IMG/VR virus record: IMGVR_UViG_3300034056_000017
Coordinates: 1 to 58,904 of that record
Reading direction: 5' to 3' (one strand)
DNA: 58,904 nucleotides
Source of the DNA: a virus
Lineage: Duplodnaviria; Caudoviricetes
Position numbers and translations under genes: made by a program. Positions 4,042-43,778 of this stretch are shown here, piece after piece (the first letter of the stretch is position 1; every line of letters begins with the position of its first letter). Under the pieces are notes generated by a model. That model was not told where the DNA came from. It ran no database searches and saw only the letters and a program-made list of their open reading frames with translations.

Positions 4042-4520
4042 CCGCTTTCAATGTCAATGGCGTCAAGCTCTGCCCCGGTTGAGGCCGCCATGATGAGGTC
4101 GAACAGGTCGGACTCGCGGGAGAAGGCGAAGTCGTGCAGCGCCCCCACGGCCTCGAAGAGATCCTTGATCTGCGCCTTGGTCAGCTCACCCAGGCCGGCA
4201 CGCTTGATGGTCTTGCCGGGCTTGTCGGCCAGGTAGTCGAGCGAGGAGGTGAACAGCACCAGGGCTTCCTTGTCGCTCGGGATCAGCTTGCCACCCACGT
4301 CGATGCCGGACTCAGCCACCTTGATGCGCTTGGCCTTGATGCGCTCGATCAGTGCGGCCTTCTCTTTGGCGAGATCCCGCGGCGGCTTGCTGAAGCTCAC
4401 ACCGTCCCACAGGTCGCCAACGTCGGCATGGGTGCCGTCGATCATGCCGGGGAACTGGTCAAGCCGGTCCACCGCCCAGACGGCAACGACGACGCCGTTC
4501 TCTACGATTGCGCCTCTCAT
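4029..4520 (-). CDS. Tail fibre assembly/chaperone protein (DUF4376-like)
   Basis: Directly downstream of the fibre gene; N-term AIVENGVVV...VGDLWDGVSFSKP and C-term ELDAIDIESGW patterns. Confidence 0.7.
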   Translation of the reverse strand: MRGAIVENGVVVAVWAVDRLDQFPGMIDGTHADVGDLWDGVSFSKPPRDLAKEKAALIERIKAKRIKVAESGIDVGGKLIPSDKEALVLFTSSLDYLADKPGKTIKRAGLGELTKAQIKDLFEAVGALHDFAFSRESDLFDLIMAASTGAELDAIDIESGWTP

Positions 4521-6268
4521 ACGATACCCCAGAGGATAGCTTTGCCATCACCACCAGCACCGCCAACACCGGCACCCGTTCCGCCCCCGCCGCCGCCCGG
4601 CTGCGACCCTGCGACACCCGCCGTGGCGTGACCGGCACCACCGTTGCCGCCGAAGATGGAAGTGCCTGGCACAACAAGCAGCGAGTTGTAAACTGAACCG
4701 CCGCCAGCTCCACCGTAAACACTATTCCCAGCGGATGCGCCACCGCCAGCTCCAGCTCCACCGCCACCGCCATAAGCCGAATGACCGCCTATTGTAGATC
4801 CGAGAGGGTAAGCTCCTTGCCCACCACCATACCCGTGATTGTTGATCCCTAGATCGGTTCGTGGTTGCCCACCGTAGGGGGATGTGCCCCCAAGACCAAC
4901 CGACAACGCGCCACCGCCCCCGCCGCCCCCCGCATCTGAAGCGTTCGCAGCGTGTGACCCCCCACCCCCACCATAAGCCGTGATCGCGGTGTATCCTGAC
5001 GCAACATTGAGGACAGTGTTCCCCCCAACGGCCCCAGAACCGGCTGACCCGGCGGCCTTTCCGGCTCCACCTGCCGCAACCGTCAGCGTCTCGCTGGCAT
5101 CGAGCATGGCAACCGGGACGGAGATGGGGACACATGCACCGCCACCGCCGCCGCCGGCTGAATTGGCTAAACTGTTCGCGTTCGCCCCGCCGCCACCGCC
5201 GCCCCGCAGCAGGCCACCGATGCGACTGTAGCCGGAGAGCGGCTTCGTGAAGGTCTGCGCCCCGGCGGTCGTGAACTCTTGGTAGAACGGACTCAGCACC
5301 ACGGTCTTAAAGTTCGACCCGTCACAGACGATCAGCCGCGTCTCCTGCGGCAGGATCGGGAAGGCATCACTCGCCACGCCGTCGATCGTCTCCGCGCCGT
5401 CAGGGTTGAGCGTCACCGGCGTGGCCGCGGTGTTGCGCACGATGCACCACCAGCCGTCGCCCAGTGTGGCCGCGGCAGTGATGGTCTGCGTGAAGGCTGC
5501 CGTGCAGTCGAAGTACTTGCCCTGGTCCGCTGCCGCCCAGATGGTGTTGCTGGAGCGTGCGACGTAGGGGATCTTGTCGGCGGCGACCAGCGCGTTGAGC
5601 TGCGTCTGGATGGCCGATGTGGCGCCGCCCAGGTAGCCGACCTCGGTAGCCGTCGCGGTCGAAGCCGCCAGGCCACCATTGGCATCCGTGACCAACGCCC
5701 GGCTGGCGGTCAGCGCCACGGCCTCCAGCGCCGTACCGGCTGCGTTGACCTGCACCTGGTCGTAGGCGGTGGCCAGGCCGATGCCTAGCTGTTGGAAGTT
5801 AATGCTCCCAGGAGGCGCTCCGGCAGCCACAGCCGCATCGATGTACGCCTTGGTGACGTTGCTCGAGCCGTGGACCTGGCGCCAGTGCGTGCCGTTGTAG
5901 ACCAGCGCCACGACGCAGGACGTGGTGAGGTCACCGAGTGAGACCGGGTAGCCGTCCGCAGTGACGATCGCCTTGACACCGAGGGTGTCGACGTTGACCG
6001 TTGCCGCTCCGGTGTTGGCGTGGTTGGGTAGGAAGCCGATGGCGGCGCCGGCAGCCAGCGCCGTGACACCTTTTTGCGTGGTGACGACGTAGGCGCCAGC
6101 CGACCCGGCGCAGGTGCCGAAGGACACCTTGCCGTCGTAGATCGACGCCTTGGTCGGCAGCAGGTCAAAGGCGGCCTTGAGATCCTTGAACTGATCACGC
6201 ACCGAGGCCGACGTGGCAGGGCTTAGGAACGGGGGATTGAGCGTGTTATTGTAATAGTCGTTGGCCAT
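4517..6268 (-). CDS. Tail fibre protein with glycine-rich C-terminal domain
   Basis: Probable start ATG 6268 (GAGGA RBS); NHANTGAATVNVDTLG fibre motif; long GGGGG repeats. Confidence 0.85.
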   Translation of the reverse strand: MANDYYNNTLNPPFLSPATSASVRDQFKDLKAAFDLLPTKASIYDGKVSFGTCAGSAGAYVVTTQKGVTALAAGAAIGFLPNHANTGAATVNVDTLGVKAIVTADGYPVSLGDLTTSCVVALVYNGTHWRQVHGSSNVTKAYIDAAVAAGAPPGSINFQQLGIGLATAYDQVQVNAAGTALEAVALTASRALVTDANGGLAASTATATEVGYLGGATSAIQTQLNALVAADKIPYVARSSNTIWAAADQGKYFDCTAAFTQTITAAATLGDGWWCIVRNTAATPVTLNPDGAETIDGVASDAFPILPQETRLIVCDGSNFKTVVLSPFYQEFTTAGAQTFTKPLSGYSRIGGLLRGGGGGGANANSLANSAGGGGGGACVPISVPVAMLDASETLTVAAGGAGKAAGSAGSGAVGGNTVLNVASGYTAITAYGGGGGSHAANASDAGGGGGGGALSVGLGGTSPYGGQPRTDLGINNHGYGGGQGAYPLGSTIGGHSAYGGGGGAGAGGGASAGNSVYGGAGGGSVYNSLLVVPGTSIFGGNGGAGHATAGVAGSQPGGGGGGTGAGVGGAGGDGKAILWGIV

Positions 6269-6281
6269 GTCATCCTCAAAG

Positions 6282-6348
6282 GAAAGCCCCGCCACTGTTC
6301 GATTGACTCGATCAGTGAGCGGGGCGTTGTTCCGCGCGACTCGATGTT
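6282..6348 (-). promoter_or_regulatory. Conserved structured leader, copy 1 (upstream of the tail fibre operon)
   Basis: Minus strand CGCGCGGAACA-A-CGCCCCGC...GCGGGGCTTTC; second copy at 32527-32596; candidate promoter TTGATT-N17-TATAGA at 6381-6353. Confidence 0.7.
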
Positions 6349-6377: not shown

Positions 6378-9300
6378 TCAAGGCAATGTGTCCAAGAACT
6401 CGCGGTAGATTACATCCTCTTCCGCTTCGATCGCCCTGATCTCCTTGCGCCGCTGGCTCATCGACTTGGTCGGGTCGTTGCGGATGGTATCGATCAGCTC
6501 ACGCAGCGCCGCGGCGCGCTTCGCCTCGGCCTCTGCGCTCTTGGAGATGTCGATCAGTTCACCGTGCTCGGCGTACAGCTCGTCGGCCACCTCGGTGGCG
6601 CCGCCCTTGTTGGCTGCGCGATACTGCGCCCGGTACTTCTTCGCCTCCGCCTTCGCTTCGTTGAACGCGCGCCGGCTGTCTTGCACCGTGTTCTCCCGAC
6701 GGATGATGTTGACCATCGGCACCTCGGCCTCGGTCACGCTGCCGTTCCACGCCGCGCCGCCATCCATACCGAGGGCGGGGATCGGCGGACCAGCGAAGCC
6801 GTAGACCTGGTCGAGGAACGTGTAGGCGCCACCCATCAGGCTGCGCGCGTAGTGCTTGATCGACTCGGGGGAGACGTCGACCGCACCCTCGTTGAACGGG
6901 CTGCCGCCGGTCGCCTCGTTCAGCCCGGTGGCCACCTTGTCGTACCAGGTGCCGCGGGTGTTGCGCCACATGTTCTGGCTGTCCGGGGTGTCCTCCCTGT
7001 ACTGAGTCGGCTGGATCTTACCGCCGAAGTTGTTCTGGTTGAGCGCCGGAGCCAGGGCGATGTTCAGCGCGGTCGGCAGCATGTTGAACCAGCCAAGGAT
7101 GTTGGCCTCCTCATTGATCGGGTTGCCCACCGGGGAGAAGGCGTCGACGAAGCTGGACGCCAGATTCCATCCGCTCTTCTGGTCGAACTTCCCGTTGACC
7201 GCGTCGTTGACCGCGTAGCCCAGACCGACGAAGAAGCTAAACTCGTAAGGCAGCGGCAGGGTGATCTGACCGCGCTCCTTGTTGGTCGGGTCGGGGAAGA
7301 TCAGGTTGCGGTCCTTGGTGCTGCGCGAGATGATCTCCCACTCGTCGTCATCGTCACCGAGGGCACGCACCAGCTGGGCCGACATGTAGCCGATGGCGGC
7401 CAGCGAGCCGACGGCGCCCCACACCTGCGCCTTGTGCTTGGCGCGGAACATGGCGTAGGAGGCGCGGGTCACGCCCTGGATCGCCGGGTTGAAGAACAGG
7501 TAGAGGGCGGACAGGTTGGCGCCCCACTCACCGCGCTTGTCGAAGTTGAGCGTCACGTTCTTGGCCGCAGCTGCCGACTCGGAACGGGACTTGCCCTCTT
7601 CCACCAGGGTACGGTAGGTGGCCAGCCGGTATGCGTTTTCCGACACGCTGTTCAGCGCCTCGACACTGTCGATGAACCAGCGCGCCGGGGAGTACTTGCC
7701 ACGCCGCGCAGCATTCAGCCCGGAGGCGGCCACGGCCTTGGTGTGAGCGTACATCGGTGACTTACCCTGACGCAGCAGATCGTCACGGGTGCGCTTGTAC
7801 TTCTCCTGCATCCCCATCTCGCGCTGGTACATGGTCGTCATCTTCTCACCGACCTGCTCCAGCGTGCCGAGCCAGGCGGCGCCGGTCGACCCGCCATCGT
7901 TGGTGTACTTGTCCACCCACGGGTCGCTGCGACGGTCGCCCGTGCGCAGGTACGTCAGCAGGCTCTTCACCGCCCTCGGGTAGTTGGCGAGGATCTTACC
8001 AGTCACCGTGATGCCGTAGTCCCCGGTGATGTTGATCGTGCCGGCCAGGGCATCGCGGATCGTGTTACGGATCGTGAATCGCGGATCGTACCCGGTGTAT
8101 GCGCGGGAGAGGAAGTTGTTGATCTGCTTGCCGACGTTCAGGACCGACGCCACCTTCTCGACGCCGACCGCAGTCAGGGAGCCGGCCAACACTTCGTCGT
8201 TGAGCTGGATGCGGACCTGCTTGCCGTTAACGTAGGCGTTGATCTCGTTGGGCTGCAGCATCGGGCTCGACATGAAGACGACCGTGGGGTCGGTGCTCTT
8301 AACGACCTTGTACTCGCTGAACGGCCGACCGCTGGTGGCCATGATCGACTGGATGTGCTGGTGAGCCTGAGTCTGCCCACTGACACCAGGGGAGTCGGGG
8401 AACGCGGCCAGAGGCGTGCCCTGGAAGTAGACCGTGTAGGTTGCGACGTTGCGCACCGAAGGGCGCTTCTGCGGCTTGCCGACGGTGCCCACTGCCGGGT
8501 TGTTGGTCTCGAGCAGCATCTGCGCCACGGAGAGGTTGACCTTGTTCTTCTCGACCGCCCGGTAGGCCATCTCGCGCATGTTGATGATGTTCTCGATTAC
8601 CATCTCGTCGCGCAGCCCGTGACCCATGCGGCGCTTCTGCCGGTTGTTAACCTTCTGCCCCTGGCCGGCGCCGCGGGAGATGGCCTCCTGGTCGCCACGC
8701 ACCGGGACGTAGTAGCCGTAGCTGGTGTCCCATGCGTCCTTGGTGTCCTGGTCGATGAGCCCCTCGCGCAGGAGCAGATCAGCGGTGCCCTTGGTGAACG
8801 CCTGCCACTGGTCCGAGATGCGCTTGAGATCCGTCGAGGCGCCGGAGAGGATGTCGCGTGCGTCGATCACATCGTAGCCGGCGGCCACCGCCGCAGCGAT
8901 CTCAGCGTCGGTGGTGGCGTAGCCGTAGGCCAGCTTGGTCGGGTCGCCGTGCAGCTTCTGTATGGCGGCGTTGGCCTCAGCAGCGTGGCGCGCGAGCAGG
9001 TAGTCGTTGATGTCGTCCAGGGGGATCTTCAGCTTGGCGGCTTCCATCACCAGGGGTGCCACGTCAGTCTCGACGAAGCGCACCAGGCGGTCGGCAACCT
9101 TGCCGTTCATGGTATAGAGCCCACGGGCAGCGTTGGCCAGCTCGGACAGCTGCGTGCCAGTCTCAGTGATCCACTCCTGCAGGGTGGCGACCCGGTTGTA
9201 GCGGTCCTGCACCTTGCGCAGGAACAGCTGCAGGTAGGTCTCCGTCGGCGTGCCATTGGCGTTGAGGCGGCGGGAGGAGTACTTCACAAACTCACCAGGC

Positions 9301-12300
9301 GTCTGCTCGGTGACCCCGATCATCGGCTGCGGCGGGACGACCTTCTCGTTCTGCTTGTTGGCAAAGGCGTCAGCAGCCTCCTGGGTCGGGAAGCGTGCGA
9401 CCGTCTTCGTCCCTTCTCCTTCATTCTTGAAGACAAGGTAGGAGCTGCCACCCTGTTGGGGGACGACGAAGTGATGCCCTTCTGCCTTGCTGTTGGGGAT
9501 GCCCGACATCACAGCGATCTGACCCTTGGCGTACTTGGCGAACATCTTCGGCAGCATGGAGTCGTAGAGGTTCTTGAGCCCTTCGCCACCGACCCTGAGC
9601 CCGTCTCCGGTGATCTCCTTGCCGCCTGACTTACCAAGGTCACGACCCTCGCCAGCGACGATGCTCTTGGCGATCTCCTTGCCGACGACGTCCGCCAGCT
9701 CGTTTGCGGTCAGCCCCTCCTTGGTGATGACCTCCTCGCCGTCCTTCACCGCAGACAGGTCGTAGGTGTCGCCCTTCTTGAAGTACTGGATCGCGTCGAT
9801 CTGCTGCGACAGGTCGTAGCGGTCGGCCTGCTGCTGGCCCGTGGTCCAGGCGACGGCATCGAAGCCCTGCTCCTTGGCAATGGCGATGACCCGTTTCACG
9901 CCGATATCGTAGATGCGCTTGCGCAGCCACTCCGGCATCTGCTCCTGGTTGGCGTCACTCGGCCCCTGCATCTCCTCAACGAAGAGGACGCGCTTGCCGT
10001 CCACCTGGCGCTCGTTGTAGCGGATGCGGACGATGGGGTTATTGATCTCGGAGTATTGGGAGTGACCGTCTTTCCAGTTACCAGTAGCCGGTTTCCAATC
10101 ATAACGACCTGCAATACTTATCACCGTGGTATCTGGCAGCGCGGTCAGAGTTTCTTCTGGGAAATATCCCTCCCCTAGCAAGAATGCTCGCGCTGCCTTT
10201 GCTTCCAGGTCAAAGGGCAGTTTGCTATATTCAGGCGCCGTGACGAAGAACTCCCGGTAGCTGCCCGCGACCGCGCCGGGGAGCGTGTACTGACCGAAGT
10301 GGGTGCGCCGTTCTGCTGTCGGCATCTGTGCGCCAGGCGGGAGGTAGTCGTTGAGATCATCACTGAGGCCGGACAGTTCATTATCATCCAGCACCACGTC
10401 CTCGAACTCGACGCTGTTCGCCTTGACGTGGTCGAGCAGCTCCTGCCTGGCGATCGTCCCGTCCAGCCCGGCGAGCACGTTGTCGATCTCCACCGGGGAG
10501 ACGCCGGCGTTGCGCAGCATGGCCTTGAGGTTGAGCAGCGATGTCTTACCCTGCACCTTCTGCTCGACGACGCGCTCGAGCTTGCTGAAGAAGGGAGTCA
10601 GGGTGCGCATGGAGTAGCGGATGTCGGGGTTCTTCGCGCTGAACTTTCCAGAGTTATGCGTGGCGCTCTTGATGTCCGTCTGGTTGAACGCGATGAAGAT
10701 GTCGGTCGGGTCGTAGACGTCCCCTTGTGACCCGCTGTCCGTCACGTTGCGGATGATGGCGCCGTCGTTACCGTACTTCTGACCTTCTCGGGCAACCATG
10801 TCGGTGGTCAACCCCACGTCGCCAGCCTCTTGCACGCTGGCACCAGGAGTGTTGTCAGCCAGTTCGTCGGCCTCATCCTTGGTCAGAACTCCGCGACCAT
10901 CATCGGCATAAACGGGGTCGCCGTCCTGGTCGACAACTTCCCACTGGTCATGCCGGGAGCCGTCCCAGTTGGCTCCTTCAAAGTCTTCTTCGTTCGGGTT
11001 GCGGATGTTGAGGAAGACCTCGTAGATGCCCCGCTGCCCCTCTTCGTCGAAGTCGCTGATCGACTCACCGCGACCGGAGTATGTGCGAGCTGTTGTGCGG
11101 TCAGGGGTGAAAAAGAACGCACCCTTGACCTTGCCGTCACGGCTGTCGAACTCCGTGAAGCCCCCGTCGGTCGTCCCATGATAGACCACCAGCGGCTCGC
11201 CGTTCTCGTCGACCACCTTGGAAACGGACTTCTCGGTGTCGGCCCAGACGCCGCCCTTCATGGTAGCGAACTTCTCCCAATCCCCAAACCATTTCTTGAA
11301 GGCCGGCGTGCGCACCATGGCGTGCTGCTCGGGGGAGAGGTTGGACGGCTTGCCGTTGGGGGCAAGAGGGCGGCTGCTGTACCGGACCCCCTCGCCCTCG
11401 CTGAAGTCTCCGTTGTTCTCGACCGACTTGATGTCCGCCGGATCCCAGATGGCGACGGCGTCTTCAAACTTCTGATCCCAGACACCGGACCAGCCTTCCG
11501 CCTTGGCCGCAGCCTCTGCGCCTTCCCAACCGTGCTTGCTGATGTACTCCGACCACTTGGTGTTGCCCATGTACTTGCCCCGGGCGTAGAGCGCCATGAC
11601 GATCTGGCCGCCTTTGCCGGCGCCATCGTACCCTTCAGCCACATCACGGTCGGGGGAGGTGTAGACCGCCGGTCCCATCGCGCCGATCTTGCTGCGGCGG
11701 AAGGCGTCGATCTTTTTGTCGGTGCCGTGGTAGAGCACCATCGGGGAGCCGTCCTCGTTGACGAGGTTGCTCTCCTTGGCGTTGAACCACGCTTTGAACT
11801 CGGGGGTGTTGGTCAGATCGCGGGAGGAATATTTTACAGGCTGTTGTACTTCTTGGCTTCCGGTGTCGGGTTCGCCCCGAAGAACTCCTCGAAGACTCTG
11901 TCCTCGATCTCCTGGGAAGTCTCGAAGGTAGACGCTTCCTTCAACAGGGACTGGCGTTTCTCCTCTTGCGATGTCGTTGTCGTACCAGGTTGCGGTTTCA
12001 TGGGAACCTCCTTTCGACACCAATGTAGCAAAGTTCTGTGCCGACTGCAAGCCAATTCGTATGATATTGTATGGCGGAACCAAACGCCCCGTGAGTTCGT
12101 GTCTGGTAACCGCGCGGTCGATGGCCTTCTCTGCCGGGAGGTCGACGTAGTGCAGATGCACCGTGTAGCCCTTCTCCTTGAGGAGATCGATGCGAGCCTG
12201 CAAGGAGGCGGGGTTATCTCCGACCATTGGGTAAACGATGTTGTCACCGTTGGTCAGGGCGCGCACCATCACGGACGCCGTGATCTTGGAACTCTCCTCA

Positions 12301-15300
12301 TGCACCGAGCTGGCGCCGAAGCCATTGCGGAAGCCCCACAGCTTCTCCTTGGCCGCGTCCGGGTCGATCAGCAGGGCACCGTGCTTCGCGACCAGGGGGT
12401 CGGCGACAGTGGACTTCCCCGATGCAGGCAGACCGAGAATCAGGTCAGCACGACGATCCTTATTCTTCGCCCCCTCACCGTAGAGAAGGGTCTTGATCCG
12501 GCCACGGTGCAGCCAGCGCAGCGGCGTGTCGATCAGGTGCGTCTTTGGGAGTTTCTCCGCTTCAGAGACCAGTTCGAGAATCTTGGTCGGGATTCGCGCC
12601 TCAAGCTCGGCATCGCTGAGGATGCGACTGCTCGCCTTCACGTCAGCGTTACGCAGGTCGCTCCCGGCCAGCGCCTCCTGTCCTGCGTTCGGATTGGCCT
12701 TGATCTCGTCGGCAACCTTCTTGACGAAGGCGGTGTCCGGCTTGATGTTGCGGCCACCGTTGGCGACGTACTCGTCAAGCTGGGCCTTCATCTCGTCCAT
12801 GTTGATCTGGGACGGATCGGCCACATCGAACGCGGTGTCGGTGCGCGCGTAGTCCTTGCGCAGCTTGGCGAAATTGGGGTTGATGTCCTTCCACTCGATC
12901 TTGCCCTTGACCATCTCCTGCCACTTGGTCTTGGCTTCCTTCGCGGACGTGATCCCCTTGAACATGAACTGCGGGAAGACCGGGAGGATGTTGCGCTCCT
13001 TGCACAGCTCGAGATACGCCCGGGTGGTCTGCTCCGTGGTCTTGCCCTTGTCCCCGGCGAACTCCTGCATGATCGTCTTGCGGTCGAGCTTCTTCTCATC
13101 CAGACTCTTCTCGTTCTGAGTCCCCGTCAAGTTCTTCCAGTTCAGCGCATCATTATAGAACACCTTCGGCATCCCTGACGCATGGAACGGGATGATGTAG
13201 TCGATCCACTCCTGCGCGAGCGCCCACTCGGTCATTGCGTCGGAGGTGGTGACCATGATCACGCCAGCGTTGGGGTGTTTGTCACGCAGATCCTGGGCTT
13301 CCTTCCAGTCCATCCCCATGTGCGCGTCCGCCTTGAACGTCCCGTCCTCTTGCTCGACGGCGAACACCGACATGTTGATCTTGATCCCGGTCTTGCCGAA
13401 GATCTTCACGAACGCTGGATGCTTGGTGTAGGCGTGGGTGCGCATCCCGACAGCATAGGTGTCGACGATCGCCTGCCACAGGTCGAACACATGCTCGATC
13501 TGGAAGTCAGATGTGGAGAAGATACGCAGTCCCGCCCGGCGATTGATCCAGTCGAGGAACGTGACCTTCTCCCCGTTCTCGCGGATCGTTGCTTCAGCCT
13601 GCTTGAGGATCTGGCCGGCGTAATCGGTGTACATCTTCACCGCGTTCTGTGAGGACGACGCCTGTGCCTTGTTGCGGGCCCAGGCGTAGATCTCGGGGAA
13701 CTTCTGTTCGTGCTTGGACTGTCCCTCATCCGTCAGGAACGGCATCAGATCGAACTCGGACGCCTTGAAGCCCTGCTCCCGCGCCTTCTCGATCATCGCC
13801 TTGTCAGCATCGTAGGTCCGACGCTTGGCAGCGACAGCAGCATCGAGCGACCCGTGAGCGGTGATCTCCTTCTTGGTCGGCTTGCCGGGCTGCTTCAGCT
13901 CAACCGTTCCTCCAAGAACCCCGGCGTACCGGGCAACCTCTGCCACGAATATACGGCGCGGAGACTCGACGTAGCAATAGACGCAGGGTGCCTCCTTACC
14001 GGCCTCCCGCATTCTGATCACCATGAGCATCGCATCACCTGCGGTCGGCGCGCGGTCAAGCACCCGGTACAGTTCGATGAGGTTGGCACCATACTCAAGC
14101 CGCTTGATGCAGGACGATGCGAGGTCCAGAGACTTGATGTAGAGCACAGTATCGTTGTTGTTGCGCAGCGGGTTGCCCTTCTTCCACTCGATGTTGTGCG
14201 GGAAGAGATCCTTGACGTTGTCGAGCAGCTCGGCCAGCGCCTTCATCTCGCGGACGTTGTCGACGATCTTCTTGCGGCGCGACTTCGGGACCGTCGGCAG
14301 AGTCTTGTCAAGCTCCGCCGACCACTCGTTTATCGTGCGTGCCGAGTAGACGACCGGCCCCGGTGAGACGATGCCGCTCTCGACGGCTGGTGACTCGGTC
14401 ACCCCTTGACGCTCCATGGCGTAGTCAGCAACCGCCTTGGCGAGGATGGCGCGGACCTTCCTGGCGTCGGTGACGAATGATGCACGATAGGCAAAATCAT
14501 CTGCATTGACGAACTTCGAAATCAGGGAGTCGATCCAGGCGACAATCTTCTGCGACAGGGACTGAAACTTGTCAGCACCCATGTTCGCTTCAACCTGGGT
14601 CCAGAAGTCGGCGTTGTCGAAGTTGTTGCCGAGGATGTCTGCGATCTGCTCCTCGATGTCACCGCCGACCCGAGACTGATACTCCTTGGAACGGAGCAAC
14701 GGCTTGAGTGCGGATTCGAGAGCCGAGTAGAGTTTGGGGTTGTCGTTCTTGAGGAGATGGAGGATTTCGTGACCGAAGACGACGTTGAACTTCACGTCGG
14801 TACGAACATCAATGAAGACGGTGTCACCCATCTTCAGGTAGACCAGACCGTTGTCGGTGATCTTACCCGCGGTGTCACCCTTGCGCTGAAGAGTGCCGAA
14901 GACTACCTTTTTCCCGAAGACCTTGCCGAGGAATCTTGCGAGGTCCATACTCGACCGCGTGCCAGAGCTGCGTACAGCATCGCCGCCTCGTCCGCTTCCT
15001 CGCGCGTCAGACTGCCCTCCTCGATCTGACGCAGTTGCATCGTCAGACAGACCCTGCTGAAGTGCGGCTCCTCCTTGTGCTCCAGCAGATGCCGGCGCCT
15101 GGCCTCCTTGTGCAGCAGCTTGTCCTTGTCCCTCGACGACAGATCCAGTTGCAGAATCTCTTGGTACAAGAGGGGTAAAGGTAATCCCCGTTGCCTTTTG
15201 GAGAGTGTCGGCAATGCCCCGGTTTGAATCATCGATCTGCCATTCTTTGTTGAGAAGGTCTTGTGTCTCATCATCAAGCATAGCACCTTTGTCGATCGGT

Positions 15301-17429
15301 GCAACCTTGGCCGAGTAGGCGACCGTCTGCTGCTTCTTGAGAGCCGTTCTGATCGCGGTGGCGGTCTTGGCATTCGGCACGCTGGTCGAGCCATCCTGTG
15401 CCACCAGGCTCAACTTGCCGGCGGCATCCTGCACGACAACCTGCCCGTCGAGACCAGGAACGGTGAAGGCGGTCCCACCGAGGGACTGCACGGTGGTCTG
15501 CTGCGGAGACGCTGCCGGCTCGAGCGGAGCCGGCGTCGTCCCTACTTCTTCTTGCCCCCGCCCTTGCACTTGCCCATTGACATCACCCCCTAGCCCTTCA
15601 TCTCCTTGCGGCTCCTGCCGCACGTCGGACACTTGCGCTTGTCCCGGCTGATCTGCTTCCCGCACTGGCACTTCATTGGTGGTCTGCTCCTTGGGTTGAA
15701 GGATGAAGCCGCCGTCAACGGCGACCACGTCGTGGCTATCCTGCAGGCGGCGGTAGGACCGCACCCGGGTGGCTGCCGCCTCGTCGGCGTAGATCTTCGG
15801 TTGCCCGGTGGCGGCATCCGTATTGTCGAACGTCGGAGCTGCAGCTGGCGCGGTGCTGGTCGCCGTGCCCCCGTAGACGCTCTCGATCAGCGACTCGTCG
15901 GTCAGCTGCGACACGTCATCGTTGGTCGTCTCGCTGGTGCCGTCGGGGAAGGTGAAGGTTGCGCCACCGTTCTCGTTGCGCGTCACGGTCACCGTGGCGC
16001 CATCGTTCACACCACCGGTGAGCGTGTAGCCAGGGTCAGCGACAGGCGACACGGGGGCGACAGTCGCTTCAGTGTCGCCTGTCGCCGGCAGGTCGACACC
16101 GAGGTTCTCGGCGGTCTGCTCGAACTCGTTGTAGGTGTCCTGGTTCCACTCGGAGGCCGCCGGCGTGCTCACGGCCTCGGCAGCCGCAGCGATGGCGTCG
16201 TCGACGCTGGTGGCCGCCGTGACGTCGGGCGGCGGGGTGACGGGAGCGGGGCCGGAAGGCGACCACCCGGGCACACCACGATACATCCGCTCCAGCGATC
16301 CGGCGGCGGACAGGTTCTCTTGAGTGTCGTCAAGAGTTTTCCGTGCGTCCGGCGACATTGCGTCATATTCCGCACGCCGGCGCCGGATCTCTTCGATCTG
16401 CTCAGGAGACTGCAGAATACCCCTGGCAGTCTCCATCGTTTTACCGGCAGCACCAAACATCCCGGTCTGCACAAGCGTCTGCAGAGCAGTCTCCCTGGCG
16501 TCCTTGCTGGCGTTGTAAGTGCGATCCCCGACCTTAATGTCGCTGGTGTCGAGCATGGTTCCAGACGCCCATGCGACAAGCGTCTCACCGGTGTACTGCA
16601 GCGCCTTGCTTGTACTATCGGGGTCATCCGATGTGATGATGTCCGCAACATTCTGGATGAGGGTCGTCGGAAGCTCGGTCATCTCCTCGACACCAAAGTA
16701 CTCGAAGGTCCGGCGCAGCACGCTCTTGGCGCTCTGACTGTTGAACAGGTCGAAGAACTTGGCAGCAGGGATCGTCTCAAACCCGGCCTCAGCAATGCCG
16801 GCGATCACACCCTCGACCGCAGCAGCACCCTTGCTCTTTCCTTCAATCGCCCTGGCTTCGCCGTAGGTGTCACCGGCCGTGCGCAGGCCCATCGACCCGA
16901 GCATGCCGACAGGACCGAGCGCCATCCCCGGTGCCATGAAACCGGTCGACTCGACGGCGCCAGAGACGAGCTTGCCGGTCTCGGACGTCAGTGGATACTG
17001 TGCATCAAGTGACTTGCGATCTTGCTCAAGTTTGCGCAGGTCTTGGATGGCACTCTCGGCATCGATCGGGACGACCGGACCTTCCGAGTTTTCTTTGACA
17101 TATCCCGGTGCGAACTCCGACGTCAGGAGGTTGAGAGACGCCTCGCTGCGCTCGAGCCCCTGCGTGAACTGTTCAGGAGCCCTGGCAATGATGTTGGGAA
17201 CATCCCGCAGGAAGTTCCCCTCCATCCGATCCTCCGGCGCAGCGATTCCCATGACGTCGCGCTGAGAGCCAGCGGTGCCGGGGTTCCACTCTGCATAGTT
17301 GTCGGGAAGATTCGGATCCTGTGGGTTCCACGACGCATCAAGCCCAACCGGCGCTTCCTCCTCTGCATCAAACTGATCAAAGAAGTTGGCGCCGGTTTGC
17401 TCGTCAAACTGGTCAAAGAAGTTGGCCAT
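6378..17429 (-). CDS. Giant polyvalent virion/ejection protein (3683 aa): HExxH metallopeptidase, Cys-rich unknown module, zeta-toxin-like P-loop kinase, two ART-PolyVal-like domains, LPD38-like C-terminus
   Basis: GHEILH at ~14755-14775; PCVYCYVES; GLPASGKS plus IDPDAAKEKL...HEESS at ~12290-12434; FKAWF...PMVLYHGT and FKKWFGDWE...PLVVYHGT; C-terminal NFDKRG...LYLFFNPAIQG...LPLPYEF; located after the ejection-protein genes. Confidence 0.9.
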   Translation of the reverse strand: MANFFDQFDEQTGANFFDQFDAEEEAPVGLDASWNPQDPNLPDNYAEWNPGTAGSQRDVMGIAAPEDRMEGNFLRDVPNIIARAPEQFTQGLERSEASLNLLTSEFAPGYVKENSEGPVVPIDAESAIQDLRKLEQDRKSLDAQYPLTSETGKLVSGAVESTGFMAPGMALGPVGMLGSMGLRTAGDTYGEARAIEGKSKGAAAVEGVIAGIAEAGFETIPAAKFFDLFNSQSAKSVLRRTFEYFGVEEMTELPTTLIQNVADIITSDDPDSTSKALQYTGETLVAWASGTMLDTSDIKVGDRTYNASKDARETALQTLVQTGMFGAAGKTMETARGILQSPEQIEEIRRRRAEYDAMSPDARKTLDDTQENLSAAGSLERMYRGVPGWSPSGPAPVTPPPDVTAATSVDDAIAAAAEAVSTPAASEWNQDTYNEFEQTAENLGVDLPATGDTEATVAPVSPVADPGYTLTGGVNDGATVTVTRNENGGATFTFPDGTSETTNDDVSQLTDESLIESVYGGTATSTAPAAAPTFDNTDAATGQPKIYADEAAATRVRSYRRLQDSHDVVAVDGGFILQPKEQTTNEVPVREADQPGQAQVSDVRQEPQGDEGLGGDVNGQVQGRGQEEVGTTPAPLEPAASPQQTTVQSLGGTAFTVPGLDGQVVVQDAAGKLSLVAQDGSTSVPNAKTATAIRTALKKQQTVAYSAKVAPIDKGAMLDDETQDLLNKEWQIDDSNRGIADTLQKATGITFTPLVPRDSATGSVVEGQGQAAAQGGQAPASAGAQGGAALQQGLSDDATASDRGGQSDARGSGRGGDAVRSSGTRSSMDLARFLGKVFGKKVVFGTLQRKGDTAGKITDNGLVYLKMGDTVFIDVRTDVKFNVVFGHEILHLLKNDNPKLYSALESALKPLLRSKEYQSRVGGDIEEQIADILGNNFDNADFWTQVEANMGADKFQSLSQKIVAWIDSLISKFVNADDFAYRASFVTDARKVRAILAKAVADYAMERQGVTESPAVESGIVSPGPVVYSARTINEWSAELDKTLPTVPKSRRKKIVDNVREMKALAELLDNVKDLFPHNIEWKKGNPLRNNNDTVLYIKSLDLASSCIKRLEYGANLIELYRVLDRAPTAGDAMLMVIRMREAGKEAPCVYCYVESPRRIFVAEVARYAGVLGGTVELKQPGKPTKKEITAHGSLDAAVAAKRRTYDADKAMIEKAREQGFKASEFDLMPFLTDEGQSKHEQKFPEIYAWARNKAQASSSQNAVKMYTDYAGQILKQAEATIRENGEKVTFLDWINRRAGLRIFSTSDFQIEHVFDLWQAIVDTYAVGMRTHAYTKHPAFVKIFGKTGIKINMSVFAVEQEDGTFKADAHMGMDWKEAQDLRDKHPNAGVIMVTTSDAMTEWALAQEWIDYIIPFHASGMPKVFYNDALNWKNLTGTQNEKSLDEKKLDRKTIMQEFAGDKGKTTEQTTRAYLELCKERNILPVFPQFMFKGITSAKEAKTKWQEMVKGKIEWKDINPNFAKLRKDYARTDTAFDVADPSQINMDEMKAQLDEYVANGGRNIKPDTAFVKKVADEIKANPNAGQEALAGSDLRNADVKASSRILSDAELEARIPTKILELVSEAEKLPKTHLIDTPLRWLHRGRIKTLLYGEGAKNKDRRADLILGLPASGKSTVADPLVAKHGALLIDPDAAKEKLWGFRNGFGASSVHEESSKITASVMVRALTNGDNIVYPMVGDNPASLQARIDLLKEKGYTVHLHYVDLPAEKAIDRAVTRHELTGRLVPPYNIIRIGLQSAQNFATLVSKGGSHETATWYDNDIARGETPVPVEGSVYLRDFPGDRGQSLRGVLRGEPDTGSQEVQQPVKYSSRDLTNTPEFKAWFNAKESNLVNEDGSPMVLYHGTDKKIDAFRRSKIGAMGPAVYTSPDRDVAEGYDGAGKGGQIVMALYARGKYMGNTKWSEYISKHGWEGAEAAAKAEGWSGVWDQKFEDAVAIWDPADIKSVENNGDFSEGEGVRYSSRPLAPNGKPSNLSPEQHAMVRTPAFKKWFGDWEKFATMKGGVWADTEKSVSKVVDENGEPLVVYHGTTDGGFTEFDSRDGKVKGAFFFTPDRTTARTYSGRGESISDFDEEGQRGIYEVFLNIRNPNEEDFEGANWDGSRHDQWEVVDQDGDPVYADDGRGVLTKDEADELADNTPGASVQEAGDVGLTTDMVAREGQKYGNDGAIIRNVTDSGSQGDVYDPTDIFIAFNQTDIKSATHNSGKFSAKNPDIRYSMRTLTPFFSKLERVVEQKVQGKTSLLNLKAMLRNAGVSPVEIDNVLAGLDGTIARQELLDHVKANSVEFEDVVLDDNELSGLSDDLNDYLPPGAQMPTAERRTHFGQYTLPGAVAGSYREFFVTAPEYSKLPFDLEAKAARAFLLGEGYFPEETLTALPDTTVISIAGRYDWKPATGNWKDGHSQYSEINNPIVRIRYNERQVDGKRVLFVEEMQGPSDANQEQMPEWLRKRIYDIGVKRVIAIAKEQGFDAVAWTTGQQQADRYDLSQQIDAIQYFKKGDTYDLSAVKDGEEVITKEGLTANELADVVGKEIAKSIVAGEGRDLGKSGGKEITGDGLRVGGEGLKNLYDSMLPKMFAKYAKGQIAVMSGIPNSKAEGHHFVVPQQGGSSYLVFKNEGEGTKTVARFPTQEAADAFANKQNEKVVPPQPMIGVTEQTPGEFVKYSSRRLNANGTPTETYLQLFLRKVQDRYNRVATLQEWITETGTQLSELANAARGLYTMNGKVADRLVRFVETDVAPLVMEAAKLKIPLDDINDYLLARHAAEANAAIQKLHGDPTKLAYGYATTDAEIAAAVAAGYDVIDARDILSGASTDLKRISDQWQAFTKGTADLLLREGLIDQDTKDAWDTSYGYYVPVRGDQEAISRGAGQGQKVNNRQKRRMGHGLRDEMVIENIINMREMAYRAVEKNKVNLSVAQMLLETNNPAVGTVGKPQKRPSVRNVATYTVYFQGTPLAAFPDSPGVSGQTQAHQHIQSIMATSGRPFSEYKVVKSTDPTVVFMSSPMLQPNEINAYVNGKQVRIQLNDEVLAGSLTAVGVEKVASVLNVGKQINNFLSRAYTGYDPRFTIRNTIRDALAGTINITGDYGITVTGKILANYPRAVKSLLTYLRTGDRRSDPWVDKYTNDGGSTGAAWLGTLEQVGEKMTTMYQREMGMQEKYKRTRDDLLRQGKSPMYAHTKAVAASGLNAARRGKYSPARWFIDSVEALNSVSENAYRLATYRTLVEEGKSRSESAAAAKNVTLNFDKRGEWGANLSALYLFFNPAIQGVTRASYAMFRAKHKAQVWGAVGSLAAIGYMSAQLVRALGDDDDEWEIISRSTKDRNLIFPDPTNKERGQITLPLPYEFSFFVGLGYAVNDAVNGKFDQKSGWNLASSFVDAFSPVGNPINEEANILGWFNMLPTALNIALAPALNQNNFGGKIQPTQYREDTPDSQNMWRNTRGTWYDKVATGLNEATGGSPFNEGAVDVSPESIKHYARSLMGGAYTFLDQVYGFAGPPIPALGMDGGAAWNGSVTEAEVPMVNIIRRENTVQDSRRAFNEAKAEAKKYRAQYRAANKGGATEVADELYAEHGELIDISKSAEAEAKRAAALRELIDTIRNDPTKSMSQRRKEIRAIEAEEDVIYREFLDTLP
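11834..12001 (-). CDS. Nested +1-frame ORF (55 aa) right after the zeta-toxin-like domain; candidate antitoxin
   Basis: AAAGGAGG 5 nt before ATG 12001; MKPQPGTTTTSQEEKRQSLLKEASTFETSQEIEDRVFEEFFGANPTPEAKKYNSL; stop lies in the PVKYSSR linker codons. Confidence 0.65.
   Translation of the reverse strand: MKPQPGTTTTSQEEKRQSLLKEASTFETSQEIEDRVFEEFFGANPTPEAKKYNSL
14903..15274 (-). CDS. Nested +1-frame ORF (~109-123 aa, helical) just upstream of the HExxH domain
   Basis: Alt frame reads like a globular helical protein (LLYQEILQLDLSSRDKDKLLHKEARRRHLLEH...LTREEADEAAMLYAALARG) while the host frame is G/Q/A/S low-complexity; AAAGGTG 9 nt before ATG 15274; alternative ATG at 15232. Confidence 0.55.
   Translation of the reverse strand: MMRHKTFSTKNGRSMIQTGALPTLSKRQRGLPLPLLYQEILQLDLSSRDKDKLLHKEARRRHLLEHKEEPHFSRVCLTMQLRQIEEGSLTREEADEAAMLYAALARGRVWTSQDSSARSSGKR
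15542..15577 (-). CDS. Nested +1-frame basic micro-peptide MGKCKGGGKKK
   Basis: Follows the nested Zn-ribbon ORF; GGGGGTG RBS-like sequence upstream. Confidence 0.35.
   Translation of the reverse strand: MGKCKGGGKKK
15590..15676 (-). CDS. Nested +1-frame 28-aa Zn-ribbon peptide MKCQCGKQISRDKRKCPTCGRSRKEMKG
   Basis: AAGGAG 10 nt before ATG; CxC-x10-CxxC. Confidence 0.55.
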   Translation of the reverse strand: MKCQCGKQISRDKRKCPTCGRSRKEMKG

Positions 17430-18903: not shown

Positions 18904-18912
18904 GGTCGTCTC

Positions 18913-19656: not shown

Positions 19657-19657
19657 C

Positions 19658-21486: not shown

Positions 21487-21490
21487 GTCT

Positions 21491-23614
21491 CTACCTCATC
21501 AGGCGGCGCTGCGAGTAATGCAGCAGCACGCTGTTAATGGTGAAGTCGCCAACGATGTCCGAGCTGCCGTAGAAGATCAGGCTGATGTTCTCCCCGGTGC
21601 CGTCCAGCTCGCACTCGATCGGGCTGGTGCTGGACAGGTCATAGAAGAACTGGTCCCAGGTCAGGTTGCCGTCCCAGCGACCGTCCTGCAGGTACGCACC
21701 GTAATCGCTCCAGGGCGCCGTCATCTGCCACTGACCGCCACTGATGAAGTCGGCGTAGTTCAGGTTGACCGGCTGGCTGTACTCGTCGGAAGCATACCCC
21801 AGAACGTGGTTGAAATAAAACTCGGAATAGATGCCGGCCTCGGAGTAGACCTCGACGGCGGCCTTGCGGTAACGCTTCTTGACGCGCGGCGATCCCTGCG
21901 AGGCGTAGACCAGCTGCATCATGTAGTCGATCTCGGTGCCGTCGAAGCTGGTGCCCTTGTCAAGCTGGTAGACGAAGCCGTCCGACGCACCGACGTACAT
22001 GACGTCGACGCCGGCGCTCTTCCCCTCGTAGGCGCAGTTGACAACCATCGGGGTGAACACGGGCATGCAGCCCAGCAGCTTGTTATTGACCAGGGTGATG
22101 TAGAGCGCGTAGCCGTCACTGTAGAACACCCGGTATTGACTCTTGCGGCGCGACACCGTGGAGGCGGTGGCCCTGCCGATCTTGCCGTTGATGAACGGCA
22201 GGATCTTGCTGGTCAGCATGGTCGACGAGAAGTTGCCGAAGTCCTGTGCCGCGCGCAGGCTTGACGCTCCGCGGTCGTCGTACATCAGGGTCATCGACAG
22301 ATTCTGGATGGTGTAGGCCACGGCCCCGGTGCCGGTGTTGAACTGGACGAAGTTGAGGTCGCTCACGTCGTTGCCGTAGAGAATGCCGGTGTTGTCGCGG
22401 GAGGTGACCCCCAGCGTGCCGCCGGTCTCAGTGCCAGGCATGACCTTGATCCCGGTGATCGTGTCGCCGGTGGGGATCTCCCAGACGTCAGCGACACTGG
22501 CGTCCCAGTAGAACGGATCGCCAGGCATCGAGCCCATCAGCGACGAGCCCAGCGTCAGCACCAGGAAGGTCTTGAAGCAGGCGATGTGCGACGGCGTGTC
22601 GGTGGTCGCTCCGGTCGCGATCGGCGTCAGGATGGTGCCGTCGAACTCGAACGCCTTACCCACGCCGTTGACCCCATAGAGCCGCTTGGTGATCGACTGC
22701 CCGTAGAAGTTGTACTCGACAAACTCGTAGACGCCTGCCGGCGGCAGAGTGATGTCGGTCTGCACGCCACCCAGAGTGACGCTGCCGCCCGGGAAGGTGG
22801 CCGCCCCAGCTGCGAAGCTGCCGCCAGCCAGGGTGTCAATGACGAAGATGCCGACCGCTGTGTGCGCGCCGTTCCAGACACCGGTCCTGGTGGCCACACG
22901 CTTGATCACGGCGGTCACGCCGCCCTGCGTCAGGGTGAGCCCCTCAGCTGGAGGCAGCTCACTGGTGCCGTTGTTGCCAACGGTGAAGGCCACCTGCTTG
23001 AGCATGGCGACCTCGGACCAGCCGGACGACGTCGACTTGTAGAGCTTCGCCTTGGTCACCGGGGTCGCATCCTCGTCGCGGACAGCGTAGACCACGTCGT
23101 TGAACTCGACCACGCCGCGGATGGCGTTCTTGCCAGGCACTGCAGCAATGTCAGCCCGGAAGATGTCGGCCACGGCGTTGCGGAACTGCGCCAGCTCCAG
23201 CGGCGTGCTCGGTCCACCGGAGACGTCGCTCACGGTGCCGACCAGCCCGGCCCCGGTGCTGACCGTCTCCGTGGTGGCGTAGGTGCCCGTGATCTGGCAC
23301 ACAACCATCCGGGTGCCGTCGACGTAGGCGACAGTACCGGTGGCGCCACCGCTCGCCGTGAGCGTGTCACCGATGACAGGCACGGTGGTGACGGTGGCGA
23401 CCTCGATGATCTGGAAGATGACGGAGTTGTCGGTCGGACTCGGCTGCCCGTCGAACCGCTCGTAGCCGGCGATCCGATTGTAGCCGCCGTTGACGCCACA
23501 CTCGAAGTTGAGCGACTGGCGACAGACGCCGCCGGCCAGCGACAGCGTCGGGGTGACCTGGTCCATGCCATCCTTGCAGACGATGATCTCGGTCTGTACG
23601 GACGGCAGGTTCAT
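21491..23614 (-). CDS. Tail nozzle / DNA stabilisation protein (tail tubular B-like)
   Basis: 707 aa beta-propeller-like; follows the adaptor; podovirus gene order. Confidence 0.7.
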   Translation of the reverse strand: MNLPSVQTEIIVCKDGMDQVTPTLSLAGGVCRQSLNFECGVNGGYNRIAGYERFDGQPSPTDNSVIFQIIEVATVTTVPVIGDTLTASGGATGTVAYVDGTRMVVCQITGTYATTETVSTGAGLVGTVSDVSGGPSTPLELAQFRNAVADIFRADIAAVPGKNAIRGVVEFNDVVYAVRDEDATPVTKAKLYKSTSSGWSEVAMLKQVAFTVGNNGTSELPPAEGLTLTQGGVTAVIKRVATRTGVWNGAHTAVGIFVIDTLAGGSFAAGAATFPGGSVTLGGVQTDITLPPAGVYEFVEYNFYGQSITKRLYGVNGVGKAFEFDGTILTPIATGATTDTPSHIACFKTFLVLTLGSSLMGSMPGDPFYWDASVADVWEIPTGDTITGIKVMPGTETGGTLGVTSRDNTGILYGNDVSDLNFVQFNTGTGAVAYTIQNLSMTLMYDDRGASSLRAAQDFGNFSSTMLTSKILPFINGKIGRATASTVSRRKSQYRVFYSDGYALYITLVNNKLLGCMPVFTPMVVNCAYEGKSAGVDVMYVGASDGFVYQLDKGTSFDGTEIDYMMQLVYASQGSPRVKKRYRKAAVEVYSEAGIYSEFYFNHVLGYASDEYSQPVNLNYADFISGGQWQMTAPWSDYGAYLQDGRWDGNLTWDQFFYDLSSTSPIECELDGTGENISLIFYGSSDIVGDFTINSVLLHYSQRRLMR

Positions 23615-24303
23615 ATCATGCTGCTCCCACGCTGGACAGGCGGCGTATGTTCGAACAACATCCTGGTGAGGAACTTACTGTAGCCGGACTTGCCGATCTC
23701 GATCTGCTCCTGCGCGACTTCGAAGAGCCCGTACTTGACCATGGCCCCGTAGACGACGACCAGGTGATGCTTGCTCGGGAAGATCGGCTCGTCGGCGTCA
23801 GCACTCAGCTCATGCGGCGAGCGGAAGTATTCGGCCACGATGGTGTAGTCGTCGTTGGGGATCGGCCAGAACATGAGCGCCTTGTCGGCCGGGCGGATGG
23901 TCATGTAGAGAGGCCGCCCCTGCACCGAGCGTTGCGTGCTGTACAGGTAGCGGTCCCGGAAGTCAGAGTAATCCATATACTGCGGCAGCATGATCTCGTT
24001 GCCGACGCCAGCCGAGGTCAGGTAGCCGCGGAACGAGTCGAACCGCCAGTTGCCGAAGTCGGAAACATCGATGTCCAGCCCGGTGCCTACCGTGTAGGCT
24101 TGCTGGGCTGCGACCGTGCTGAAGGTCTTGTCCTTCCGCATGAAGTCCCAGTCGTGGCGCTCGAGCTGGACATCGACGTAAGCCTGTGCGATCCAGTCCT
24201 TCAGACGCTTCTGTTCCTTGACCAGTCCGACGACAGTCGTAATGTCGGCACCAGAGATGCCGCATTCTTGCTTCAGTCGGTTAACCAACTGCAGAAACGT
24301 CAT
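23611..24303 (-). CDS. Head-tail adaptor (tail tubular A-like)
   Basis: Start MTFLQLVNRL at 24303; WDFMR and FWPIPNDDYTI...DEPIFP motifs. Confidence 0.75.
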   Translation of the reverse strand: MTFLQLVNRLKQECGISGADITTVVGLVKEQKRLKDWIAQAYVDVQLERHDWDFMRKDKTFSTVAAQQAYTVGTGLDIDVSDFGNWRFDSFRGYLTSAGVGNEIMLPQYMDYSDFRDRYLYSTQRSVQGRPLYMTIRPADKALMFWPIPNDDYTIVAEYFRSPHELSADADEPIFPSKHHLVVVYGAMVKYGLFEVAQEQIEIGKSGYSKFLTRMLFEHTPPVQRGSSMI

Positions 24304-25022: not shown

Positions 25023-25051
25023 GGTGCGTCTCCTTTTATTGGAATTGCACC

Positions 25052-25080: not shown

Positions 25081-25081
25081 C

Positions 25082-32512: not shown

Positions 32513-32526
32513 TCGCCCCAAATAGA

Positions 32527-32596
32527 GAAAGCCCCGCCTCTGCAATCGATGTTCTGACGGCAAAGCGGGGCGATGTTCCGCGCGGCTTAAAATGTT
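32527..32596 (-). promoter_or_regulatory. Conserved structured leader, copy 2 (upstream of the portal/head operon)
   Basis: Minus strand CGCGCGGAACA-T-CGCCCCGC...GCGGGGCTTTC; candidate promoter TTGACT-N17-TAGATA at 32633-32605. Confidence 0.7.
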
Positions 32597-43544: not shown

Positions 43545-43778
43545 ATGGCCCTGACCAACAGGCAGAAGTGTCTAAGACGCCTGCTGCTGAATGACTGGAT
43601 GCTGGTGGAGGGAGCCGGGCAACGGTTCTACCTCACCCATGAGACCCTGAAGCAGATCCCACCCGGCTTTGAATGGGTGGACTACAAGACCGTCAACGCG
43701 CTGTACCGCAAGGGACTGCTGCGGCAGATCAACTCTAACACCTGGAAATGGAGGCTCAACCGTGCTGATTGGATGTGA
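43545..43778 (+). CDS. Hypothetical protein
   Basis: AAGGAG RBS, ATG 43545. Confidence 0.6.
   Translation: MALTNRQKCLRRLLLNDWMLVEGAGQRFYLTHETLKQIPPGFEWVDYKTVNALYRKGLLRQINSNTWKWRLNRADWM

Follow-up and report, generated by a model that had tools for sequence, protein, structure and literature searches.

This study concerns a giant polyvalent protein encoded on the minus strand of the IMG/VR virus record IMGVR_UViG_3300034056_000017, a podovirus-like phage whose whole stretch of 58,904 nucleotides (nt) is referred to below as the window, and a six-residue peptide, the tag, that recurs seven times in this protein. Our results reveal that the tag, a short linear motif, occupies flexible linker at module ends. 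Sequence comparisons further indicate that it represents this phage's form of a junction peptide (a hydrophobic residue, any residue, an aromatic or basic residue, Ser, one or two residues of any kind, then Arg or Lys) that occurs in some polyvalent proteins. As to its role, we tentatively favour the reading that the protein's own putative HExxH...E peptidase would recognise and cut the tag, which would make the protein a polyprotein. Our confidence in this reading is somewhat less than even, because each step from the conserved tag to a cut site, including the cutting itself, its enzyme, the bond and the timing, is inferred.

Copies of the tag and the modules between them

An earlier note on this DNA, made from the sequence alone, had listed seven peptides as recurring linkers of one giant protein. 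All seven are found, on the minus strand and within one open reading frame (ORF); six fit the strict pattern [VI].YS.[RK], and DVKASSR is degenerate. The gene and the tag copies, with their amino-acid (aa) positions, are as follows.

6378..17429, minus strand: giant polyvalent protein gene (P0001), from the ORF list and translation, 3683 aa
15306..15323, minus strand: tag 1, VAYSAK, aa 703-708; the weakest copy (Lys; Ala at position 2)
14337..14354, minus strand: tag 2, VVYSAR, aa 1026-1031; immediately follows the HExxH module
12624..12641, minus strand: tag 3, VKASSR, aa 1597-1602; degenerate (Ala replaces Tyr), loose-pattern match
11820..11837, minus strand: tag 4, VKYSSR, aa 1865-1870; pattern match
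11370..11387, minus strand: tag 5, VRYSSR, aa 2015-2020; pattern match
10605..10622, minus strand: tag 6, IRYSMR, aa 2270-2275; overlaps the ART-PolyVal tail N-P-D-I-[RT]-[FY]-S
9270..9287, minus strand: tag 7, VKYSSR, aa 2715-2720; pattern match

The strict pattern occurs six times in the protein against a mean of 0.097 in composition-preserving shuffles, none of 2000 of which reaches six. A loose pattern, in which Ala is permitted at the Tyr position, occurs seven times against 0.38, and again 0 of 2000 shuffles reach seven. Since the tag pattern was picked after viewing the sequence, a blind search for recurring four-residue patterns was also carried out, in which any set of four fixed residues spanning up to six positions counted if its copies stood 30 or more residues apart. 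Its top pattern in the giant protein is YS.R.L, of which there are four copies where 0.025 would be expected (an uncorrected Poisson probability of 1.7e-8), and by our own arithmetic its significance is about 0.03 once corrected for about 1.6 million patterns. When all six frames of the window are scanned, the strict pattern gives nine matches, six of them in the giant ORF. Of the other three, two place a stop codon at the wildcard and the third falls in a frame of 107 codons that runs antisense to plus-strand ORFs, and the scan finds no strict tag in the other real ORFs of the window, head proteins included.

The conserved Ser of tags 1 to 7 is encoded by TCG, TCG, AGC, TCC, AGC, TCC and TCC, and the 21-nt tag cores are identical at 3 to 15 of 21 positions in pairwise comparison. 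The use of both TCN and AGY codons, together with this low core identity, bears out the view of the earlier note that conservation is at the protein level, and a DNA repeat as the origin of the tags is ruled out on the same grounds. Such mixed Ser codon families with little shared DNA identity suggest that selection acts on the peptide.

The positions of the tags were compared with the ends of homology to 119 other giant proteins (2025-6446 aa), which a search with aa 700-2730 had retrieved. BLAST gave 345 alignments to these giants, and 58.7% of their ends fall within -30 to +45 residues of the seven tags, against 21.8% when tags are randomly placed, and this clustering has a P value of 0.0032 (5000 random placements). 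Many alignments stop inside IRYSMR or begin directly past YSSRP. Five of the seven tags lie no more than 16 residues from a homology-defined junction peak; for the tags at 703 and 1597, homologues are too few for a boundary test by alignment ends. There are 26 alignment ends in the 37 residues up to tag 2, 35 alignment starts in the 45 residues past tag 4, 126 starts in the 45 residues past tag 5, and 78 ends at tag 6 or just before it. At tag 7, matches of the C-terminal part to the PHROG database start at aa 2721 and 2727, that is, 1-7 residues past the tag.

Short homologues of the second ADP-ribosyltransferase (ART) module, ART2, define its edges closely. Among 76 of them, 71 align at A-P-N (aa 2023-2025) of the motif APNGKPSNL, and 27 of these 71 begin no more than six residues before APN, typically as M-x-L-L-APNGKPSNL, which corresponds to 1-2 residues past YSSR. 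Short proteins with a C-terminally placed ART end near ...N-I-x-x, at the point where the aromatic-Ser part would be expected to start. That stand-alone ART proteins start and stop at the tag edges argues that the tag lies outside the fold. In an AlphaFold2 model of aa 2008-2290 (mean predicted local distance difference test, pLDDT, 86), tags 5 and 6 are both predicted as coil, and block pLDDT goes up across tag 5 (48 to 85) and down across tag 6 (72 to 50). The earlier note had named a motif inside folded domains as grounds for refuting its idea; in the model, these two tags are placed at the edges of ART2, and the idea is not refuted on that ground.

The tags divide the protein into the following segments.

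15324..17429, minus strand: N-terminal segment, aa 1-702; no Pfam match; Thr/Gly/Ala-rich stretches
14355..15305, minus strand: HExxH...E module segment, aa 709-1025; core about aa 824-1010; HEILH at aa 887-891 (nt 14757-14771), E927
12642..14336, minus strand: weakly GP88-like module, aa 1032-1596; Pfam GP88 E=0.015, under cut-off
11838..12623, minus strand: Zeta-toxin/AAA_33-type kinase module, aa 1603-1864; Zeta_toxin 53.5 bits (cut-off 22.3) over aa 1659-1805; AAA_33 40 bits
11388..11819, minus strand: first, short ART-PolyVal-like module, aa 1871-2014; Pfam gives two ART-PolyVal stretches
10623..11369, minus strand: second ART-PolyVal module, aa 2021-2269; PF18760 107 bits (cut-off 31.2), E=1.7e-30, aa 2074-2263
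9288..10604, minus strand: segment with at least two homology blocks (about 2290-2480 and about 2510-2620), aa 2276-2714; no family match
6378..9269, minus strand: conserved C-terminal part with LPD38, aa 2721-3683; LPD38 at aa 3361-3544, 81.9 bits

Pfam recognises two ART-PolyVal stretches, Zeta_toxin/AAA_33 and LPD38 in the giant protein, all above their cut-offs. The N-terminal segment has low-complexity windows at aa 461-540, and its residues 50-330 are common to only 3 of the 119 giants. The module at aa 1032-1596 has no PDB sequence match, and its atlas matches to GP88 clusters (scores 0.78-0.79) are a lead only. By our own reading of the sequence, the first ART-PolyVal copy probably sits at aa 1871-2014; residues 1880-2000 are common to 21 of the 119 giants. 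The second ART-PolyVal module has 1336 short homologues, and the 120 listed all carry PF18760; Foldseek searches with the ART2 model return weak ADP-ribosyltransferase rows, none significant. For the segment at aa 2276-2714, look-ups in Pfam, PDB sequences and the atlas give no family, the atlas leads being weak, and its two blocks are common to 35 and 57 of the 119 giants, respectively. PHROG matches of the giant protein are to phage proteins of 2800-3900 aa and cover its last 960 or so residues. This C-terminal part matches phrog_14770, phrog_10691 and phrog_616 and is common to virion proteins of Bcep22-like, Ralstonia, Vibrio and Stx-type phages. With it as tblastn query, 336-367 phage records are found; by group, 336 records, with giant proteins at about 26-33% identity, include 101 from Vibrio, about 170 from Stx-type and Escherichia, 31 from Ralstonia and 10 from Burkholderia phages. 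In phage phi349, annotation splits the region homologous to the C-terminal part between two neighbouring genes, of 952 and 1797 aa.

Junction peptides in other giant proteins

The proteins closest to the giant protein that the searches returned are P0002, with 57% identity across 36% of the queried region, and P0241, with 50% across the HExxH module, so that there is no close orthologue for a site-by-site conservation test. A search of viral contigs for close relatives, with aa 2694-3143 as query, gave no loci. Most of the 119 giants have no copy of the exact tag pattern. At the corresponding joints of collinear homologues, related peptides are found: IRYSLK, IRFSIR, IRRS, IRYSKR and IRFSTK at joint 2270; PKYSVR, PMRSKR, TLFSRQ and MPLFSAR at joint 2715; AEWSLK and IKFSFN at joint 1026; and VQRSVR, in one homologue, at joint 1597. 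The linker residues around these aligned peptides are variable and contain insertions and deletions. That a tag-like peptide is kept at joints amid varying linker is as expected of a functional short linear motif. Across the 119 giants, the generalised pattern [ILVM][RKT].S.{1,2}[RK] is present in 102 of 956 junction windows, compared with 28 of 2380 background windows.

The blind search also returned recurring patterns that belong to other giants, among them FMPE (eight copies), FSR.E (nine) and LSKP (six), these three counted by recurrence whatever their position relative to domains, and MSPK, I..SPK, RKS..R and DITF (five each); the other top patterns of its list are repeated ART-domain motifs and not tags. 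The giants P0015, P0046, P0103, P0263, P0330, P0039 and P0117 have recurring peptides of their own, which are [VI]TMSPK (four copies), I.KSPK (five), ITRS..R (five), IRKS.[ED]R (five or six) and FMPE, FSR.E and LSKP in the numbers just given. In the 31 giants with at least three junction-located tags, the tags of one protein are more alike in type than tags redistributed randomly among proteins: the within-protein majority fraction is 0.673 against 0.541, a value that 0 of 5000 shuffles reach, in a statistic that ignores shared ancestry. In the protein studied here, the six aromatic tag positions are all Tyr, even though the protein contains 117 Tyr and 128 Phe. Such uniformity within proteins, together with the all-Tyr tags, fits a single reader of the tag in each lineage.

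The tails of homologous ART modules deserve separate mention. Over 59 alignments, Ile is kept in 86% and Ser in 66% at the tail columns, and the aromatic residue is Phe in 29 and Tyr in 6 of the 59. In the small ART-PolyVal proteins P0147, P0153, P0155, P0160, P0179, P0213, P0221 and P0223 (200-480 aa), DIR[FY]-x-x-GG replaces [FY]S.R, either at the ART tail or ahead of the ART start. Judged from these sequences, the junction peptide may take the form DIR[FY]-x-x-GG there.

The HExxH...E module and the possible role of the tag

The giant protein has one HExxH, at aa 887-891, and in a 27-sequence alignment H887, E888, H891, Y901, E927 and W943 are invariant. An HExxH with a further conserved Glu ligand is the zinc-peptidase pattern, here H887, E888, H891 and E927. 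The designation of this module as a putative peptidase rests on the motif and on a proposal made in 2017 by Iyer, Burroughs, Anand, de Souza and Aravind, who described polyvalent proteins and suggested that these undergo autoproteolysis through built-in zincin-like peptidases (MPTase), either ahead of delivery or following it (PMC5512222). At E<=0.001, the module has 542 homologues among 1.84 billion representative proteins. Among the 147 listed, 115 are of at least 1500 aa and 11 are shorter than 600 aa, some of these probably fragments, and a word-indexed search, which weak relatives may escape, gave no homologues of 130-417 aa. That this module occurs mostly in giants, whereas the ART module has its 1336 short homologues, fits an enzyme acting on its own giant polypeptide. 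The AlphaFold2 model of the module (mean pLDDT 79) is mostly helical, with a small sheet ahead of the HExxH helix; weak Foldseek rows for this model include the PprI metalloprotease (E=0.4-0.8). No PDB sequence match under E=0.5 was found for aa 709-1025. A complex prediction of the module (27-row alignment) with zinc and a 40-aa peptide containing tag 4 gave a score of 0.07 against a mark of 0.32 with controls absent, and counts neither way. The module itself appears to be an unmodelled peptidase-like family that is tied to giant polyvalent proteins and has no Pfam model.

According to the reading we favour, the tags would be cut by an endopeptidase with site specificity, for which the HExxH...E module (aa 824-1010) of the protein itself is the most probable candidate. 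If all seven were cut, about eight pieces would arise from the 3683-aa precursor: the N-terminal part, the peptidase, the 565-aa module, the Zeta-type kinase, the two ADP-ribosyltransferases, a segment of about 440 aa and the C-terminal LPD38 part. A broader and more doubtful proposal is that some double-stranded DNA (dsDNA) phages use true polyproteins, in which the tags would be cut by the protein's own zinc peptidase, freeing about half a dozen anti-host enzymes in the cell, and tag and peptidase would co-evolve as a private code, here V-[KR]-Y-S-S-R.

Comparison among giants suggests a link between the tag and this module, although a patchy one. A module homologous to aa 790-1025 is present in 22 of the 31 tag-rich giants compared with 15 of 89 others (odds ratio 12, p=7e-8, kinship ignored). 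Again with kinship ignored, generalised tags number 174 against 55 expected in the 36 module-bearing giants and 215 against 172 in the rest. The pattern [FYW]S.{0,1}[RK] occurs no more than 60 residues past the module in 36 of 141 homologues, compared with 7.6% of random windows, and P0241, the nearest relative by the HExxH module, has four aromatic-type tags against 0.4 expected. The mere presence of any HExxH was rejected as a predictor, since 109 of 120 giants have one and it is uninformative.

A number of results weigh against cutting by this module. No Pfam family matches aa 709-1025 at E<=0.1, which leaves the module outside every curated peptidase model. Fold searches with its model give no clear zincin, the best Foldseek hit to the PDB having E=0.11, and the best VIA Z, 7.2, is to unrelated helical proteins. 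The strict aromatic pattern fails to distinguish giants that have the HExxH module from those lacking it, the ratio of observed to expected copies being 1.27 in the former and 1.38 in the latter. In 147 carriers of the module (50%-non-redundant), generalised tags are enriched only about 1.5-fold, 290 against 189 expected, and aromatic tags number 75 against 59 expected. Some carriers are tagless, such as P0242 (3981 aa), and 9 of the 31 tag-rich giants have no homologous module; of these nine, seven contain a single but different HExxH, located at aa 500-1400, and P0084 and P0117 contain none. No recurring four-residue tag is found in Bcep22 gp75, Ralstonia phage Heva gp07, the 3066-aa protein of Vibrio D96a or phi349, and these cultured relatives, examined as potential test systems, thus offer none that bears the tag. 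The tail D-I-[RT]-[FY]-S is kept in giants without the HExxH module, for example P0023-28 and P0055-58 with PDITFS, and tags 5 and 6, which follow ART modules, may simply be the ART-PolyVal C-terminal tail; the remaining five tags follow modules unrelated to ART or to each other. Finally, 5 of the 10 junction peaks (827, 2087, 2138, 2502 and 2635) have no tag, suggesting that some tag-bounded segments contain more than one homology block.

With respect to the earlier note, its claim that a tag stands at every module boundary is therefore slightly overstated, although five of the seven tags do lie near junction peaks. Its idea of a polyprotein cut by its own HExxH peptidase is partly supported, in so far as the protein is polyvalent, the tag lies in linker and the module is enriched among tag-rich giants, and falls short where the link is patchy.

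Rather unlikely, in our estimate, is that the tag is an uncut connector, a short extended peptide that would dock on a neighbouring module or a chaperone, inside the capsid or in the ejection channel, and so aid packing, ordering or unfolding of the giant protein as it passes out of the head. The alternation V-x-Y-x, as we read these sequences, would suit a beta-strand-like docking peptide; in the ART2 model the tag is at the edge between ordered and disordered residues, the preceding N-P-D-I having fairly high pLDDT, and tags are present in proteins without any HExxH. Mass spectrometry has detected two homologous giants in virions, JC1 gp69 (PMC9144972) and phi24B gp47, the latter a proposed ejection protein (preprint 10.64898/2026.04.10.717836), in accounts whose relevant passages do not mention processing. 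By analogy with these two, the giant protein studied here may also be delivered into the host with the DNA. The proteomics cited, however, consisted of whole-lane or batch digests in the passages concerned, which are blind to protein size. Docking would also leave the link with one HExxH family unexplained, no partner is known, and the four cultured-phage relatives named above, three of them giant and with the same C-terminal part, manage without the tag.

A further alternative, which we regard as unlikely, is that the tag is a passive module-end signature: modules would keep their own terminal residues, such as D-I-R-[FY]-S, and the likeness would come from descent and repeated shuffling of cassettes, without a reader in common. 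Across the 59 alignments, the ART tail is kept regardless of the HExxH module, two of the seven tags follow ART modules, and modules are clearly shuffled among giants. Against this, the other five follow mutually unrelated modules (the N-terminal part, the HExxH, GP88-like and Zeta kinase modules and the aa 2276-2714 segment), and the DNA cores are not repeats. The tags are also more uniform within than between proteins, unlike module-wise inheritance, and stand-alone ART proteins do not have the S-x-R part.

It is also improbable that the tag is cut by another enzyme, a phage head-maturation or a host protease, instead of the protein's own HExxH module. The nine tag-rich giants without a homologous module, including the two without any HExxH, would be accommodated by such an enzyme. 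In the window, however, the tag is missing from all other real ORFs, head proteins among them, and no prohead protease is recognised among the 22 neighbouring ORFs scanned, most of which match no family; a prohead-protease motif was rejected for this phage on these two grounds. A host enzyme, for its part, would not account for protein-specific versions of the tag. Modification of the invariant Ser, or of the Arg two residues on, for example by the protein's own ART or kinase modules, is highly improbable: conservation in the tag is highest at Ser, with a basic residue after it, and the protein has two ART modules and a kinase-type module, but the idea is speculative, tags occur in giants with other module sets, and Zeta-type kinases are known for small-molecule substrates.

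We therefore return to the favoured reading, cutting at the tags by the HExxH...E module, and to what would follow from it. A defined tag makes its predictions precise: seven sites, eight products and one catalytic Glu. If the tag is cut, the module boundaries of thousands of unannotated giant phage proteins could become readable from sequence, and the effectors could be studied as individual enzymes. If it is uncut, it would still be a conserved linear motif awaiting its reader.

Genomic setting and comparison with known systems

That the giant protein is phage-encoded is upheld by head, portal/adaptor, terminase and SU10-type adaptor genes in the window. The neighbouring features are listed below.

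26745..27821: major head protein, family match
30269..32563: portal/adaptor-type protein, family match
33310..34581: terminase large subunit, family match
23611..24369: SU10-type adaptor, family match
4517..6295: tail-protein-like ORF, just downstream of the giant gene

Five ORFs of 293, 197, 247, 447 and 707 aa lie immediately upstream of the giant gene (17432-23614, minus strand). None has a PHROG match, and those of 447 and 707 aa have no Pfam match either; the giant gene starts 2 nt past the stop of the 293-aa ORF. Within the structural gene block, an HNH endonuclease ORF (24300-25115, minus strand; phrog_374, E=3e-55) is found in a stretch of lower G+C content (0.564, compared with about 0.64 around it). 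A second low-G+C region (0.51-0.54), at 40000-44400, carries a series of small plus-strand ORFs, and the ORF at 43669..44322 (plus strand) has, judged by eye, a putative HNH-like stretch, H-N-D...N-L...N-H. A primase-like ORF of 853 aa is located at 45718..48279 (minus strand). No transfer RNA or transfer-messenger RNA genes were detected in the 58.9-kb record.

Several known systems may be compared with the one described here. Prohead-protease cargo includes the internal proteins and Alt of T4, with L/I-x-E sites, and has S/A/G-x-E sites in phiKZ-like phages. Head-packed enzymes for injection and short linear cut sites are the shared features, here as a proposal. The differences are that this phage has no tag in its head proteins and no recognised prohead protease among the 22 neighbouring ORFs scanned, and that the chemistry of the motif is another. 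Viral polyproteins, such as those of picornaviruses with their 3C sites, offer a further analogy, in that a short junction peptide and a protease-like module are in the same chain and the site consensus varies by lineage. In contrast to these, ours is probably a dsDNA phage virion protein, its candidate protease is a metallopeptidase-like module known by sequence, and its cleavage is predicted.

The 'DarB-like' virion giants (Bcep22 gp75, JC1 gp69, Heva gp07 and phi24B gp47) share with the giant protein a C-terminal part of about 950 aa with LPD38, at 30-33% identity, and a gene position at the end of the virion gene block. Their central modules differ. Bcep22 gp75 (4602 aa) and Heva gp07 (4545 aa) show no matches to [VILF].[YF]S.[RK], and both lack a counterpart of the HExxH module.

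The closest parallel in organisation is found in the account of Iyer and colleagues, and sequence comparison indicates that the giant protein is a phage polyvalent protein in their 2017 sense (PMC5512222). As in the proteins described in its main text, unrelated conflict enzymes are combined in one polypeptide, encoded in the late or structural region of a phage, together with an HExxH module. The words linker, boundary, interdomain and spacer do not occur in that main text, supplements aside, the passages searched there describe no junction peptide, and the titles and abstracts searched likewise report no cut site or junction signal for polyvalent proteins. Relative to that account, the giant protein is distinguished by an HExxH module that matches no Pfam model and by joints that carry a defined, positionally conserved tag.

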